Shown in pieces: positions 25,194 to 32,763 of a stretch of 64,000 nucleotides of DNA. The stretch comes from Escherichia coli. Its GTDB lineage: Bacteria; Pseudomonadota; Gammaproteobacteria; Enterobacterales; Enterobacteriaceae. The translations under genes and the position numbers were made by a program. The stretch lies in NCBI RefSeq assembly GCF_013122565.1, contig NZ_CP053258.1; one strand, written 5' to 3'. Numbering within the stretch: the first letter of the stretch is position 1; every line of letters starts with the position of its first letter. The notes under the pieces are model-generated. The model was given only the letters and a program-made list of their open reading frames with translations, was not told the DNA's origin and searched no databases.

Positions 25194-26348
25194 TTACTTC
25201 AGACCGGCAGCATCGCGCAGCAGCTGCGCTTTGTCGGTTTTTTCCCACGGGAAATGTTCACGACCAAAGTGACCGTATGCTGCGGTTTCTTTGTAGATCG
25301 GGTGCAGCAGATCCAGCATCTGAATCAGACCGTATGGGCGCAGGTCGAAGAACTCACGTACCAGCAGAGTCAGTTGTTCAGAAGGCACTTTCTCAGTACC
25401 GAAAGTTTCTACCATGATGGAAGTCGGTTCAGCCACGCCGATTGCGTAGGAAACCTGAATTTCACAACGATCGGCCAGGCCAGCAGCAACGATGTTTTTT
25501 GCAACATAACGTGCTGCGTACGCAGCGGAACGGTCCACTTTTGATGGATCTTTACCAGAGAATGCACCGCCACCGTGACGCGCCATGCCGCCGTAGGTAT
25601 CAACGATAATTTTACGACCAGTCAGACCGCAGTCACCCATTGGGCCACCGATAACGAAACGACCGGTCGGGTTGATGAAGAATTTGGTGGCAGAAGTCAG
25701 CCATTCAGCGGGCAGAATTGGCTTGATGATCTCTTCCATTACCGCTTCTTGCAGCGATTTCTGGTCGATCTCTTCAGAGTGCTGAGTGGAAAGCACGACA
25801 GCATCAATACCAACGATTTTGCCGTCGTCATACTGGAAAGTCACCTGGCTTTTCGCGTCCGGGCGCAGCCACGGCAGAGTGCCGTTTTTACGCACTTCAG
25901 CTTGACGCTGTACCAGACGGTGTGCATAGGTGATAGGTGCTGGCATCAGCACGTCGGTTTCATTAGTTGCGTAGCCAAACATCAGACCCTGGTCACCCGC
26001 GCCCTGTTCCAGCGGATCGGCACGGTCAACGCCCTGGTTGATGTCAGGAGACTGTTTGCCGATAGCGCTCAGAACCGCACAGGAGTTAGCGTCAAAGCCC
26101 ATGTCGGAATGTACATAGCCAATTTCGCGAACGGTGTTACGGGTGATCTCTTCGATGTCTACCCAGGCGCTGGTGGTGATTTCGCCGCCAACTAAAACCA
26201 TGCCGGTTTTTACGTAGGTTTCGCAAGCAACGCGTGCTTTCGGATCCTGTTCGAGGATCGCGTCTAAAACGGCATCAGAAATTTGGTCAGCAATTTTGTC
26301 AGGATGCCCTTCAGAGACGGACTCGGACGTAAAAAGGTGTTTTGCCAT
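25194..26348 (-). CDS. metK: S-adenosylmethionine synthetase
   Basis: ORF 25194..26360 trimmed to [18 protein letters not shown] (384 aa). Confidence 0.9.
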
Positions 26349-26403
26349 ATTTAATATCACCTAAAGAGAATTTGGTTAGCTCAAACTGTTGTGTGGATTT
26401 TCT

Positions 26404-26655
26404 GTGGTAGCGGATCCTACCACGACTCTGCAGGTTAAAAACACTGGCAGTCTGAGTGTTAATCGGTATGGATGGATTAACATCTGGATGGCTATTTTAG
26501 GTCAATTCTTCACCCGATTTCCACTTTTTTTTGAATCGTGTCTCATTCTGCTAAAAACGTGGCTGGAAATTTTTCCTGACAATGCCGGCATTCTGCGTAT
26601 TTATCTTTTGCAATTTTCTGCCATTGTGGGGTATAAAACGCGGCGCGCGGCTTAA
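26404..26655 (+). CDS. yqgD: Small protein, probable YqgD
   Basis: ORF 26389..26655; an 83-aa product if started at the GTG at 26404. Position between metK and speA; weak support. Confidence 0.3.
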
Positions 26656-26867
26656 ATAAAAAGCACACGACGTTTCTTGCGTGTTGCCACTTCCAGCCGG
26701 GTTGAAATCAGAGTTTTGGCTTGTGGGTTCGTCTTAACAGGCGGCCGTGGAGGTGATACGAAATAATGAACCGTTGTCTGCTGCTTAACCTGTCTCACCG
26801 TTCTGGTGAAGATTCGTTCCCCGTACTCTGCATCTCTGCTTTGCATACCTGCCGATGTTATACCCAT
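26652..26867 (-). CDS. yqgC: Small protein, probable YqgC
   Basis: 71-aa ORF, the same length as K-12 YqgC as I recall it; weak support. Confidence 0.3.
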
Positions 26868-27002
26868 CTCGGCGCTTCTCAGGATTCAAGAGCTGGTTAC
26901 AGTTACTGAGGACTGAACAAGGGCGCTCTTGTAAAAACAAGAGTTTTCTCGTGGTTTCGCCGAACTGTCACACTTACGTTCGGTTATGTGCTTAATAATG
27001 TT

Positions 27003-27134
27003 ATGAAAAAGAAACCGGTTGCGCAGTTGGAGCGTCAGCATTCACTGCTGGAAAATCCATGTGCTTATGGGTTGTTATCGCAGTTCCAGGCTGCGATAGT
27101 CGTTAACTGTTTTACACTTAATAAAATAATTTGA
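27003..27134 (+). CDS. yqgB: Small acid-stress protein YqgB
   Basis: 43-codon [46 protein letters not shown] immediately upstream of speA; too short for the ORF track. Confidence 0.55.
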
Positions 27135-27142
27135 GGTTCGCT

Positions 27143-29119
27143 ATGTCTGACGACATGTCTATGGGTTTGCCTTCGTCAGCGGGCGAACACGGTGTACTAC
27201 GCTCCATGCAGGAGGTTGCAATGAGCTCCCAGGAAGCCAGCAAGATGCTGCGTACTTACAATATTGCCTGGTGGGGCAATAACTACTATGACGTTAACGA
27301 GCTGGGCCACATCAGCGTGTGCCCGGACCCGGACGTCCCGGAAGCTCGCGTCGATCTCGCGCAGTTAGTGAAAACTCGTGAAGCACAGGGTCAGCGTCTG
27401 CCTGCACTGTTCTGTTTCCCACAGATCCTGCAGCACCGTTTGCGTTCCATTAACGCCGCGTTCAAACGTGCGCGGGAATCCTACGGCTATAACGGCGATT
27501 ACTTCCTCGTTTATCCGATCAAAGTTAACCAGCACCGTCGCGTGATTGAGTCCCTGATTCATTCGGGCGAACCGCTGGGTCTGGAAGCCGGTTCCAAAGC
27601 CGAGTTGATGGCAGTGCTGGCACATGCTGGCATGACCCGTAGCGTCATCGTCTGCAACGGTTATAAAGACCGCGAATATATCCGCCTGGCATTAATTGGC
27701 GAGAAGATGGGGCACAAGGTCTATCTGGTCATTGAGAAGATGTCAGAAATCGCCATTGTGCTGGATGAAGCAGAACGTCTGAATGTCGTTCCTCGTCTGG
27801 GCGTGCGTGCACGTCTGGCTTCGCAGGGCTCGGGTAAATGGCAGTCCTCCGGCGGGGAAAAATCGAAGTTCGGCCTGGCTGCGACTCAGGTACTGCAACT
27901 GGTTGAAACCCTGCGTGAAGCCGGGCGTCTCGACAGCCTGCAACTACTGCACTTCCACCTCGGTTCGCAGATGGCGAATATTCGCGATATCGCCACAGGC
28001 GTTCGTGAATCCGCGCGTTTCTATGTGGAACTGCACAAGCTGGGCGTCAATATTCAGTGCTTCGACGTCGGCGGCGGTCTGGGCGTGGACTATGAAGGCA
28101 CCCGTTCGCAGTCTGACTGCTCCGTAAACTATGGCCTCAATGAATACGCCAACAACATCATCTGGGCGATTGGTGATGCGTGTGAAGAAAATGGTCTGCC
28201 GCATCCGACGGTAATCACCGAATCGGGCCGTGCGGTGACTGCGCACCATACCGTGCTGGTGTCGAATATCATCGGCGTGGAACGTAACGAATATACGGTG
28301 CCGACCGCGCCCGCAGAAGATGCGCCGCGCGCACTGCAAAGCATGTGGGAAACCTGGCAGGAGATGCACGAACCGGGAACTCGCCGTTCTCTGCGTGAAT
28401 GGTTGCACGACAGCCAGATGGACTTGCACGATATTCATATCGGCTATTCTTCGGGCACCTACAACCTGCAAGAACGCGCGTGGGCTGAGCAGCTTTATCT
28501 GAGCATGTGTCATGAAGTGCAAAAGCAGCTGGATCCGCAAAACCGCGCACATCGCCCGATTATCGACGAATTGCAGGAACGTATGGCGGACAAAATGTAC
28601 GTCAACTTCTCGCTGTTCCAGTCGATGCCGGATGCGTGGGGGATCGACCAGTTGTTCCCGGTTCTGCCGCTGGAAGGGCTGGATCAAGTGCCGGAACGCC
28701 GCGCTGTGCTGCTGGATATTACCTGTGACTCTGACGGTGCTATTGATCACTATATCGATGGTGATGGTATTGCCACGACAATGCCGATGCCGGAGTACGA
28801 TCCGGAGAATCCGCCGATGCTCGGTTTCTTTATGGTCGGCGCATATCAGGAGATCCTCGGCAACATGCACAACCTGTTCGGTGATACCGAAGCGGTTGAC
28901 GTGTTCGTCTTCCCTGACGGTAGCGTAGAAGTGGAACTGTCTGACGAAGGCGATACCGTGGCGGACATGCTGCAATATGTACAGCTCGATCCGAAAACGC
29001 TGTTAACCCAGTTCCGCGATCAAGTGAAGAAAACCGATCTTGATGCTGAACTGCAACAACAGTTCCTTGAAGAGTTCGAGGCAGGTTTGTACGGTTATAC
29101 TTATCTTGAAGATGAATAA
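27143..29119 (+). CDS. speA: Biosynthetic arginine decarboxylase
   Basis: ORF 27131..29119 trimmed to the ATG at 27143 ([17 protein letters not shown]), giving 658 aa. Confidence 0.9.
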
Positions 29120-29136
29120 TTAAGATTATTCCGCTG

Positions 29137-29176
29137 GCGGGTCGATTTATTTACGTAAATCGGCCCGCTTTCTTTT
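29137..29176 (+). terminator. Rho-independent terminator after speA
   Basis: GCGGGTCGATTTA...TAAATCGGCCCGC inverted repeat followed by TTTCTTTTT. Confidence 0.45.
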
Positions 29177-29264
29177 TATATATTCTTAAAAATAATTTAG
29201 CTGCTTTTCTTATTAAATAATCTCCCTACAATCGCTGCATTAATTAAATGCAGAGGGAACGGTT

Positions 29265-29996
29265 ATGAAAAAATGGAAAGTACGTAGCGCGTTGATAGCA
29301 TTAGTCGTGCTGCTGGCCGGTTGTTCCAGTAATGCGCAGTATAATAGCAGTGCATCGGGCAATGTCGGCACCGCCTGGGGTGGGGATGTGCACTCATCGG
29401 TTCAGGGCGTATCTGCTGAACGAGCCTGGCGCGATCCTGCAGAGATGATCGTTATTAGTTATTCGACTAATGTTCCTTCCGGCTACGACCGCGTTTATAG
29501 CATTCGTATTAACGAACTGGAATATGCTATTCGCGATGGTAATTTTAATTCTCTACCTATTACGCGGGCTTATGATTCATCCAATAATGAACCACGCTAT
29601 ATTGTCCATGCCAGAGTCGGAATGAATTATCAATTATATGTCCGTAATTACAGTCGTAACACCAACTACGAGATCGTTGCTACGGTTGATGGCCTGGATG
29701 TGCTGAACGGCAAGCAAGGTTCGCTGAATAACAACGGCTATATTGTGAATGCCGGAGATTCTTTAGCGATTAAAGGATTCCGCAAAGATAAACATACCGA
29801 AGCGGCTTTTCAGTTCGCCAACGTTGCTGATTCCTACGCCGCCAATTCGGCGCAAGGCGATGTGCGTAATACCGGGGTAATCGGCTTTGCCGCCTTTGAA
29901 TTACAAGGCCCGGCGCAAAACGCGATGCCGACGTGCTCTGGACAAGCCTTTCCGGCGGACAACAATGGCTATGCGCCGCCACCGTGTCGGAAATAG
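29265..29996 (+). CDS. Hypothetical lipoprotein (accessory; no K-12 counterpart recalled)
   Basis: 243-aa ORF with an N-terminal signal peptide and lipobox (LLAGC), AGGGA ribosome-binding site upstream, and its own terminator downstream. No family recognised. Sits in a speA–speB spacer of about 1 kb, against roughly 0.14 kb in K-12 from memory. Confidence 0.55.
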   Translation: MKKWKVRSALIALVVLLAGCSSNAQYNSSASGNVGTAWGGDVHSSVQGVSAERAWRDPAEMIVISYSTNVPSGYDRVYSIRINELEYAIRDGNFNSLPITRAYDSSNNEPRYIVHARVGMNYQLYVRNYSRNTNYEIVATVDGLDVLNGKQGSLNNNGYIVNAGDSLAIKGFRKDKHTEAAFQFANVADSYAANSAQGDVRNTGVIGFAAFELQGPAQNAMPTCSGQAFPADNNGYAPPPCRK

Positions 29997-30061
29997 CAAC
30001 CTCGCTTGATGCCTCGCCCATTTAAGGCGATAATTAACACAAACTTGTGTTTCGCAAATCC

Positions 30062-30103
30062 AACCCTTCCTCGTCGGGCCTAACGACGCGGAAGGGTTTT
30101 TTT
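30062..30103 (+). terminator. Rho-independent terminator after the lipoprotein gene
   Basis: AACCCTTCC...GGAAGGGTT stem followed by TTTTTTT. Confidence 0.45.
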
Positions 30104-30131
30104 ATATCGACTTTGTAATAGGAGTCCATCC

Positions 30132-31052
30132 ATGAGCACCTTAGGTCATCAATACGATAACTCACTGGTTTCCAACGCCTTTGGTTTTTTACGCCTGCCG
30201 ATGAACTTCCAGCCGTATGACAGCGATGCTGACTGGGTGATTACTGGCGTGCCGTTCGATATGGCCACTTCTGGTCGTGCGGGTGGTCGTCACGGTCCGG
30301 CAGCTATTCGTCAGGTTTCGACGAATCTGGCCTGGGAACACAACCGCTTCCCGTGGAATTTCGACATGCGTGAGCGCCTGAACGTGGTGGACTGCGGTGA
30401 TCTGGTATATGCCTTCGGCGATGCCCGTGAGATGAGCGAGAAGCTGCAGGCACACGCCGAGAAGTTGCTGGCTGCCGGTAAGCGTATGCTCTCCTTCGGT
30501 GGTGACCACTTTGTTACGCTGCCGCTGCTGCGTGCTCATGCGAAGCATTTCGGCAAAATGGCGCTGGTACACTTTGACGCCCACACCGATACCTACGCGA
30601 ACGGTTGTGAATTTGACCACGGCACCATGTTCTATACCGCGCCGAAAGAAGGTCTGATCGACCCGAATCATTCCGTGCAGATTGGTATTCGTACTGAGTT
30701 CGATAAAGACAACGGCTTTACCGTGCTGGACGCCTGCCAGGTGAACGATCGCAGCGTGGATGACGTTATCGCCCAGGTGAAACAAATTGTGGGTGATATG
30801 CCGGTTTACCTGACCTTTGATATCGACTGCCTGGATCCTGCTTTTGCACCAGGCACCGGTACCCCGGTAATTGGCGGCCTGACCTCCGATCGCGCTATTA
30901 AACTGGTACGCGGCCTGAAAGATCTCAACATCGTTGGGATGGACGTAGTGGAAGTGGCTCCGGCATACGATCAGTCGGAAATCACCGCTCTGGCTGCGGC
31001 GACGCTGGCGCTGGAGATGCTGTATATTCAGGCGGCGAAAAAGGGCGAGTAA
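30132..31052 (+). CDS. speB: Agmatinase
   Basis: 306-aa ORF of the arginase/ureohydrolase family (conserved His/Asp Mn-binding residues, e.g. GGDHF...DAHTD). Confidence 0.9.
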
Positions 31053-31200
31053 GTCATCTGCCTGGTTGAATTTTTTACACAGTCCCTTGTCTGGCACAAG
31101 GGACTTATCATTTAAAACCTATCCTGTTAATTAAGTCATCTTACCCTGACTGCTGTTTTTTAATGGATTGTTATTATCGCGTTTTTAATGGAATAAATAG

Positions 31201-32763
31201 ATGGAACGCACTCTTCCCTGGAAGCCTCTTCTTTGTTTGTTATTTCTTTTATCAACTGGCTGCGATAGAGCAGAAAAACAGAAAATTGCCGCACAGCTGC
31301 AACAAGACAAAGAAGCTATTTCCTCTGTCGTCAAAAAGAGTTATCGCGCATTATGTGGCCCTGAGTTTGTCACCAGCATAGATTCGCACGATCGCCTTGC
31401 GGAAATGCAGCAAGTATTTACGCCTGCTTTAATGGAGCCTGTACTGAAATACTGGCAAGAGTCACCCAAAACGTGTAAACGACGTTTCCCCAGTTATAGC
31501 GATCCTTCAGCGACCTTCGTCGAAGGCGACAAGGCGCAGATTGGTGCTTTTTTTGGTCACCAATCTGATATTGATATTCCAATGGAGTTAATCCGGCAAG
31601 GGGATGGTAAATGGAAGATTGCTGCGATTGATATTGCATCGTTACACGAGTTTGAAAAAAACGGTCGGGTTACTGATGAGGTGCAGAAAAAAATAGATTT
31701 GCTTAAAAAACGCTCATTCAAGCAACATAGGGATTCCCCTGTGCTGACGAGGACCGCGCCAGAGCGGGTCAGTAAGTCCCCTTTGACATCGATGGAGCAA
31801 ACAGTTACGGAGCAAGACTCTTCCTGGCTGGATGTCTTACTGACAATAGGCAAATATGCCCTTTATCTGGTAGCGATAATACTTATTCTCGCCTTGGTGG
31901 CTGTTTTGTGGATTGGTTATGGCCTGGTGTTCGCCGGACATCGCCTTTTCAAAGCATCCTGTAGAGATCCCTCAATTCAAAAAATTCCTGTGGCTGAACG
32001 TTGGGCAATGGCAGTCGGCGCGCCTTATGCCATTGCGGGTAACAATCACTGGGCGCGACGAGTCGTTAATGATGATTCCGAGGAAGCAGAGAATGATTGC
32101 AAAAGTGAAGTTGAGTCCCTTGCTGACATGTGGGGCGTCTTTGATCGGGATTCGTTACTTGAGCAACTCTTAGCTTTGTTTGTTGCAGGGCATCGTTCAG
32201 TTTATGAAGAACAGATCAAAAACGATAGCGAAATGCCGGATGCTGAATATCGCGCGTTCGCTCAGCAATTAGCCCAGAACGCGAAATCAAGTAGCGAAGC
32301 GAAAGAGCGTTTGTGGCAGCTACAGATGGTCAGAAAAAATCGACGTAAAATATGCGATATAGATTTTTGTGCCTGGGATATGGTGCGTTTTGTCATGCTA
32401 TGTAATAGCGGGGCGCAAGTGGGATACATTACCCAGCGTGAAATGGTCGATTTTTCGATGCTGGCAGCCAGACGCGTACAGCAACATTACAGAAGCTGGC
32501 GCGAATTGGCCGGGCATTTTTTGCTGGCCCGTTGGTACTGGAAAGCAACGGATAAACGGCACCTGATTACCCATATTCTTTTTAAGAAAGCCATTACATC
32601 TTTATTAAAAGAGCAGGGGAGTCCGTGGCGTACTTTACCCTGGGATACTCCATTACCTGAAGGAACAGAGACGGCTTTTGCCTGGGCTTGTGGCGTAAGC
32701 ACTGCCGATGTAGTAGAGGTGCGATTGGATACACCAGATAAAGCAATCTACGAAGCGAATTGA
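31201..32763 (+). CDS. Hypothetical 520-aa lipoprotein/membrane protein with a possible DUF1266-like C-terminal domain (accessory)
   Basis: N-terminal signal peptide with lipobox (LLSTGC), a roughly 190-aa soluble region, a long hydrophobic segment (LDVLLTIGKYALYLVAIILILALVAVLWIGYGLVFAG), then a roughly 280-aa C-terminal region with CAWDMVRF and LLARWYW motifs that remind me of DUF1266 (YbeR/YbeU-type). The family call is from memory only. Confidence 0.5.
   Translation: MERTLPWKPLLCLLFLLSTGCDRAEKQKIAAQLQQDKEAISSVVKKSYRALCGPEFVTSIDSHDRLAEMQQVFTPALMEPVLKYWQESPKTCKRRFPSYSDPSATFVEGDKAQIGAFFGHQSDIDIPMELIRQGDGKWKIAAIDIASLHEFEKNGRVTDEVQKKIDLLKKRSFKQHRDSPVLTRTAPERVSKSPLTSMEQTVTEQDSSWLDVLLTIGKYALYLVAIILILALVAVLWIGYGLVFAGHRLFKASCRDPSIQKIPVAERWAMAVGAPYAIAGNNHWARRVVNDDSEEAENDCKSEVESLADMWGVFDRDSLLEQLLALFVAGHRSVYEEQIKNDSEMPDAEYRAFAQQLAQNAKSSSEAKERLWQLQMVRKNRRKICDIDFCAWDMVRFVMLCNSGAQVGYITQREMVDFSMLAARRVQQHYRSWRELAGHFLLARWYWKATDKRHLITHILFKKAITSLLKEQGSPWRTLPWDTPLPEGTETAFAWACGVSTADVVEVRLDTPDKAIYEAN

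Follow-up and report, generated by a model that had tools for sequence, protein, structure and literature searches.

Szumanski and Boyle are said to have found both monocistronic and speA-linked transcripts of speB in Escherichia coli K-12. In this strain speA and speB, coding for the biosynthetic arginine decarboxylase and the agmatinase, are close neighbours, 137 bp apart with nothing between them (record of strain J53, used here for the comparison with K-12). Two other described situations resemble parts of the locus reported here: the outer-membrane lipoproteins LpoB and RcsF, in which a flexible linker tethers a small globular domain, and the his operons, which are interrupted by unrelated open reading frames (ORFs) in Proteobacteria generally. 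We analysed a stretch of 64,000 nucleotides of the E. coli contig NZ_CP053258.1 (assembly GCF_013122565.1), hereafter the window, in which a lipoprotein gene of 243 amino acids (aa), here named X (29265..29996, + strand, ATG start, TAG stop), is located between speA (27143..29119, 658 aa) and speB (30132..31052, 306 aa). The three genes, taken from the ORF list and, for speA and speB, identified by tblastn, are all on the + strand, the spacers flanking X measure 135-145 bp, and the speA and speB products of K-12 are 100% identical to those of the window. A sequence-only reading of the window, made before this analysis, had correctly placed a 243-aa lipoprotein gene between two genes that adjoin in K-12, and had taken it for an insertion relative to K-12. 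The evidence on this last point goes the other way: X is probably a vertically inherited and separately transcribed lipoprotein gene that has occupied the speA-speB gap since an ancestor of the Enterobacteriaceae, and that was deleted in K-12.

The order speA-X-speB was found in Escherichia sp. MOD1, E. whittamii, Citrobacter, Kluyvera, Klebsiella, Intestinirhabdus, Phytobacter, Kosakonia and Entomohabitans, and X has the same place and orientation in at least eight enterobacterial genera. E. albertii showed X-speB at a contig end, and Salmonella showed speA-X followed by an unrelated GntR / mannitol-dehydrogenase island, speB having moved away. Among 5426 complete E. coli genomes, X (called present when at least 80% of a 1012-bp query was covered) was found in 3550 and the K-12 junction in 1863. 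The alignment of the spacers of the window, K-12 and STEC719 showed that K-12-type E. coli lack a stretch of about 877 bp (29120..29996) with the hairpin T1 described below, the X promoter region and X itself. The flanks are the same in K-12, the promoter-like TTGA..-17-GATAAT lies at the same place, and K-12 and the window agree in every base of the last 77 bp of the spacer, which include T2 and the speB ribosome-binding site. The synonymous divergence (dS) of X from three other Escherichia lineages was 0.28-0.36, compared to 0.26-0.31 for speA and 0.18-0.26 for speB. Around X in the window we found no flanking repeats beyond short ones at chance level, and no integrase, transposase or insertion sequence (IS); no microhomology was detected at the deletion junction, and mobilizable plasmids carried no copy of X, and phages none of full length. 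The speA-X synteny of the outgroups, the matching dS and the absence of mobility signs argue for a deletion in the K-12-type lineage, and not for an insertion here, as the origin of the X polymorphism of E. coli. In about one E. coli in three, among them K-12, a single deletion of about 877 bp would thus have taken out T1, X and the X promoter region.

The gap between speA and speB was also compared in more distant genomes (loci L096, L099, L097 and L003/L004). Edwardsiella has the order metK-speA-speB with no gene between speA and speB, a PHP-domain gene occupies the slot in place of X in one enterobacterial contig (L099), and in Providencia X lies between metJ and priA while speB stands alone. 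One further contig carries pectate-lyase, SBP and AP-endonuclease genes before speB. The speA-speB gap is thus a recurrently used, variable slot in Enterobacterales. X does not accompany every speA-speB pair, being missing from the slot in the 1863 E. coli genomes, Edwardsiella and L099, and it is located elsewhere in Providencia. Because the speA-speB pair of Edwardsiella is without X, an ancient insertion of X in an ancestor of the Enterobacteriaceae is likely.

A recent horizontal insertion in the lineage of this strain, with the K-12 state as the ancestral one, would explain the absence of X from K-12, would suit a slot that is empty in Edwardsiella and filled differently in L099 and Salmonella, and would agree with the composition of X. 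As the sequence-only reading had estimated by eye, X is AT-richer than its neighbours, with a GC content of 0.490 and a GC content at third codon positions (GC3) of 0.480, compared to 0.547 and 0.625 for speA and 0.553 and 0.629 for speB. The GC3 of X ranks sixth-lowest among the 54 long ORFs of the window (median 0.564), and the gene is rich in rare codons, a composition that fits weak expression as much as foreign origin. The shared position in the outgroups, the dS equal to that of the flanks and the lack of repeats, integrase and IS nevertheless stand against a recent insertion, as do the two hairpins, T1 covarying across genera as the speA terminator and T2 being present in K-12 as well. 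This explanation is very improbable and was rejected for E. coli. The idea that X is a decaying or spurious ORF without function, which the sequence-only reading had itself raised, draws on the dispensability of X in K-12 and on its broken alleles: a 174-aa form ending in foreign residues accounts for 448 member sequences, and Shigella dysenteriae has X fragments only. Such truncated or fragmentary alleles (P0024, P0036; AFDB A0A090NIM7, A0A0A6ZYV3) being frequent, X has therefore been inactivated repeatedly, besides the K-12 deletion. Codon-level comparison, however, gave a dN/dS of 0.06-0.17 for X over saturated dS, with 0.009-0.037 for speA and less than 0.01 for speB; at the protein level X evolves about ten times faster than speA and speB, yet is clearly constrained. 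Orthologues of X across many genera keep its length and start, and its family of 2910 clusters shows invariant residues and a confident fold prediction. With same-length orthologues in many genera and a low dN/dS, X is no chance ORF but a genuine gene held by purifying selection, and a spurious or functionless ORF was discarded for the intact allele of the window as having next to no probability.

We then compared the transcription signals around X with those of K-12. T1 (29136..29179, + strand), detected by terminator scan and folding, consists of a 15-bp hairpin (29136-29169) followed by a T-run, with a folding energy of -23.4 kcal/mol (z -5.0). In a comparison of 11 enterobacterial loci, compensatory changes preserved 8 of the 14 pairs of T1, and it is missing from the K-12 spacer. 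T1 is predicted to be the own terminator of speA, ancestral in Enterobacteriaceae and lost by K-12. Upstream of X, a candidate -10 element TACAAT (29227..29232, + strand) belongs to a column reading TACAAT, TACCAT, TATTAT or TACTAT that is conserved in the speA-X spacers across genera, and a Shine-Dalgarno sequence GAGGGA is located 7-12 nt 5' of the ATG. The hexamer would belong to an own promoter of X. A palindrome CTGCATT-AATTA-AATGCAG (29235..29253, + strand) abuts the Shine-Dalgarno sequence; its fold (-9.3 kcal/mol, z -1.8) is weak and not significant, and it may represent a hairpin of the 5' untranslated region, an operator or a translational control element. In this place Salmonella carries another palindrome (CCCCT...AGGGG), which would include its Shine-Dalgarno sequence.

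Before speB, the consensus scan detected the promoter-like sequence TTGATG-17 nt-GATAAT (30006..30034, + strand). Its CTTG and GATAAT parts recur in most of the aligned spacers, that of K-12 among them, with CATAAT instead in Edwardsiella, and are kept even at loci with a different gene before speB. The promoter-like sequence is followed by T2 (30062..30103, + strand), a hairpin with arms at 30062-30076 and 30084-30098 and a T7 run, supported by folding (z -4.1). T2 is 100% identical in K-12, hardly varies between Escherichia, Klebsiella and Edwardsiella, be it in the stem, the bulge or the loop, and accompanies speB whether speA, the PHP-domain gene or the AP-endonuclease gene lies upstream. 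Rfam returned no family for T1 or T2 in the region 26300-31300. T2 can, in principle, end X transcripts, and it is located in the putative speB leader; its distribution is that expected of a speB leader element shared with K-12 and not of a private terminator of X. Because T2 is far more conserved in sequence than T1, it may be a specific regulatory leader, such as an attenuator or a protein-binding site, and not a plain terminator, as this conservation suggests. The earlier claim that X has its own terminator on each side is thus right as to the two hairpins, whereas the upstream one would belong to speA and the downstream one is shared with K-12.

From these signals, speA transcription would stop at T1, X would form its own transcription unit from the -10-like element and Shine-Dalgarno sequence, and speB would then be transcribed from its own conserved promoter with the leader hairpin T2. 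If a speAB operon is understood as a unit without intervening terminators, X does not belong to it, being preceded by T1 and followed by the promoter-like site and T2. In K-12 only T2 would remain between speA and speB, because the deletion took T1, the X promoter region and X. The sequence-only reading had further proposed that X uncouples speB from speA read-through. The two hairpins and the 1 kb between the genes agree with this, but the arrangement is ancestral, and it is the K-12 deletion that would have removed a barrier.

The N-terminus of the X protein, MKKWKVRSALIALVVLLAG|CSS, has the basic n-region, hydrophobic core and L-A-G-C lipobox of a lipoprotein signal peptide. The part before the cleavage site contains four basic residues (three Lys, one Arg) followed by 12 mostly hydrophobic ones, with a helix at residues 2-18 in the model, and the lipobox corresponds to residues 17-20, with a Cys column conserved in at least 90% of 68 homologues. 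A residue other than Asp after the lipidated Cys directs lipoproteins to the outer membrane by the Lol system. X has Ser at positions +2 and +3 of Cys20, and is thus predicted to carry its lipid on Cys20 and to be delivered to the outer membrane. The protein can be divided into the signal peptide (residues 1-19), Cys20, a flexible linker (about 21-32), an all-beta globular part (33-215) and a conserved tail with FPAD..YAPPPC (216-243), and it would hang into the periplasm from the outer membrane by the linker. The length of the linker varies from about 12 to more than 100 residues across the family; domain fusions were sought among the longer homologues and none was found, the extra length being longer linker only. 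In the same way as LpoB and RcsF, X thus has a non-Asp +2 lipobox, a variable disordered linker and one compact domain; the likeness is one of analogy only, since X has no sequence or fold similarity to either.

The X protein is 98% identical to other E. coli copies, 94-95% to those of other Escherichia species and 74% to that of Salmonella, and 60-74% identical over the full length to those of Klebsiella, Citrobacter and Kluyvera, with Klebsiella at 60-72%. At 33-45% identity, relatives were found in Providencia, Proteus, Gilliamella, Neisseria, Kingella, Acinetobacter, Pseudomonas, Burkholderia, Variovorax and Paracoccus, of which Providencia, Neisseria, Acinetobacter and Variovorax gave 37-45%. 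These homologues are full-length and of the same size, with E values down to 1e-155, and include UniProt A0A1Q4PKQ4 and WP_000758896. When 1.84 billion cluster representatives were scanned exhaustively with HMMER, the counted units being clusters at 50% identity, 2910 proteins reached E ≤ 1e-3 and 873 reached E ≤ 1e-10, the family spanning the proteobacteria widely, from Escherichia to Variovorax and Neisseria. The alignment of the 68 sequences showed a conserved G-T-x-W-G strand near the N-terminus, a strongly conserved core (E-x3-T-V-D-G-x-D-V, G-Y, G-F-R, F-x-F, S-Y-A and N-x-G-V-I-G) and a conserved tail F-P-x-D...Y-A-P-P-P, which in the enterics is closed by two cysteines (C224 and C241 in X). 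X contains the family motifs GTAWG (35-39), EIVATVDGLDV (136-146), GFR (171-173), SYA (190-192) and FPAD..YAPPP (229-240). The statement of the sequence-only reading that X belongs to no recognisable family was borne out by all the searches: no Pfam match was obtained for X or for any of 93 homologues (68 + 25) scanned singly, NCBIfam gave no family match, a lone match to ActS (E 0.0045) being limited to the signal peptide of X, and the PDB gave no match by sequence or by profile. PADLOC and PHROGs gave no match either, and the reading of X as a defence gene was rejected. In public records, the relatives of X are named 'hypothetical protein', 'lipoprotein', 'membrane protein' or 'outer membrane lipoprotein'.

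The AlphaFold2 model built on the 68-sequence alignment had a mean pLDDT of 89.9 and a pTM of 0.78. It is entirely beta from residue 34 to 213, with the linker and tail at low confidence, and no close solved structural relative was found for it. The globular part would be an all-beta, TRAF/MATH-like sandwich. The TRAF/MATH-like sandwiches of USP7 (2f1x), SPOP MATH, Fusarium Avr2 and Ptr ToxA, and the fungal DUF7918 domain, have 2-20% identity to X, no Pfam profile match in it and, for the solved structures, scores too low for a claim of homology. For the DUF7918 domain itself we know of no described function. On the surface of the model, the conserved residues E136, T-V-D-G-x-D-V (140-146), G-F-R (171-173), S-Y-A (190-192) and N202 form a motif set. 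Searches with the sequence and the model showed no resemblance to a known enzyme family or catalytic fold; a role for X as a putrescine-pathway enzyme was rejected. Because no enzyme was matched, the tether varies in length and the fold is a sandwich, we tentatively regard X as a non-catalytic binding or scaffold module hung from the outer membrane into the periplasm, which would act on a ligand or partner in the envelope. Some large phages of Rhizobium, Sinorhizobium and Agrobacterium have hypothetical proteins that contain the conserved core of X (about residues 95-219) at 33-38% identity (MN988519.1, locus L100 2489-3214; PV764938.1; MF403008.1). This core thus seems to be an autonomous domain.

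All ORFs within 4.5 kb of X were clustered at 92 loci. Two stable contexts of X appeared: speA-X-(speB), seen in Enterobacteriaceae, and hisG-hisD-X-Y-hisC-hisB, seen at 27 loci of Comamonadaceae, where the genes are separated by gaps of 10-35 bp. Y, a small secreted protein, has about 120 aa and no family, with examples in Variovorax, Xenophilus and Comamonas (L007-L012, L041, L045 and others). The X-Y pair between hisD and hisC is one more interruption of a his operon; in the window, unlike in Comamonadaceae, X lies outside any his operon and is set off by terminators and spacers of 135-145 bp. Genes for mla-like functions, bolA and murA precede the X cluster of Comamonadaceae, and an envelope theme accounts for this context equally well as a histidine theme. 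Elsewhere the neighbours of X were unrelated and differed by genus: sbcC in Acinetobacter, mltG in Neisseria, a phnE-like permease gene in Pseudomonas, pnp in Vitreoscilla, ctp in Saezia and hybD and hybE in Enterobacillus, in addition to metJ and priA in Providencia. No partner gene common to the X loci beyond single families was found in the 92 loci, and the small downstream secreted proteins of Variovorax and Acinetobacter are not alike.

These contexts bear on two functional explanations of X. In one of them, X is tied to the handling of polyamines or basic metabolites, for example by binding, retaining or sensing putrescine or agmatine at the outer membrane, which would explain why X stays inside speA-speB and inside hisD-hisC of Comamonadaceae. 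X has been kept beside speA throughout the Enterobacteriaceae, even in Salmonella where speB moved, it was independently embedded in the operon-tight his cluster, and three conserved acidic residues, E136, D142 and D145, are potential cation ligands. X nevertheless lies between terminators and has start signals of its own, its contexts in Providencia, Acinetobacter, Neisseria, Pseudomonas, Vitreoscilla, Saezia and Enterobacillus are unrelated, a third of E. coli lost it while keeping speA and speB, and the envelope genes upstream explain the Comamonadaceae context equally; we consider a polyamine link unlikely. The other explanation takes X for a surface-exposed or host-interaction protein (adhesin, immune evasion) kept in pathogenic or wild E. 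coli and shed by some commensal or laboratory lineages. It is in line with the presence of X in O157, O111, 536, ST648 and APEC records and its absence from K-12, BL21-type strains and J53, with the fast protein evolution, and with the matches to TRAF, ToxA and Avr2-like folds, which are protein-recognition modules. Homologues are however common in soil and water bacteria without a host link (Variovorax, Paracoccus, Inquilinus, Iodobacter), the dN/dS well below 1 indicates no diversifying selection, and surface exposure is not readable from the sequence, so that this explanation appears quite improbable. The best reading remains that X is an accessory lipoprotein gene, ordinary and dispensable, from a family that is large and uncharacterised; it would be dispensable in the laboratory and would not be a step of putrescine synthesis.

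Several observations weigh against a vertically inherited, separately transcribed X removed by one deletion in K-12. The GC3 of 0.48 is also compatible with foreign origin, and the X-less speA-speB pair of Edwardsiella restricts the ancestry of X to the Enterobacteriaceae. The consensus scan called no promoter for X and no good -35 was seen, the conserved -10-like hexamer being the only element. The 61 bp that remain in K-12 opposite 29997-30055 of the window are identical to it in only 36 of 65 aligned columns, whereas the flanking sequence in K-12 is nearly or fully identical, and X-carrying Escherichia, including E. albertii, are nearly identical to one another across the same stretch. Given this divergence, the K-12 state may not be a one-step deletion, and the K-12 spacer haplotype may be older than apparent or may include imported sequence. 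The long retention of X beside speA and its embedding in the his operon of Comamonadaceae could reflect a functional link. Finally, since no paper or experiment was found in the literature for any member of the X family, localisation, lipidation and function are all inferred. Within the diverged 61 bp of K-12 (locus L001, 3941-4001), the -10 plus discriminator GATAATCCGCC matches the enterobacterial contig L097.

A probable deletion in K-12 corrects a K-12-centred view of the locus: the textbook closeness of speA and speB would be the product of a deletion in about a third of E. coli. Because this deletion also took the speA terminator T1, conclusions on speA-speB read-through drawn from K-12 may not hold for most E. 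coli, Salmonella and Klebsiella. A broader idea, that the long-term residence of X in speA-speB and hisD-hisC is not accidental but links the envelope to the homeostasis of basic metabolites and polyamines, and that the loss of X together with T1 rewired the coupling of speA and speB in K-12, has in our opinion only a slim chance of being right; if true, the textbook speA-speB operon of K-12 would be a derived oddity. X is so far an ordinary 'conserved hypothetical', and the value of the locus lies in the corrected K-12 picture, the size of an unannotated family and the deeply conserved speB leader hairpin. With thousands of sequence clusters and no Pfam model, structure or literature found, the X family is a reasonable target for envelope biology.

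Next to this locus, a 520-aa gene with a DUF1266 domain is located between speB and loiP (31201-32763, + strand). It is present in 211 of the 5426 complete E. coli genomes, is absent from K-12 and STEC719, and has the lowest GC3 of the window (0.441). It represents a second, rarer presence/absence polymorphism adjoining that of X.
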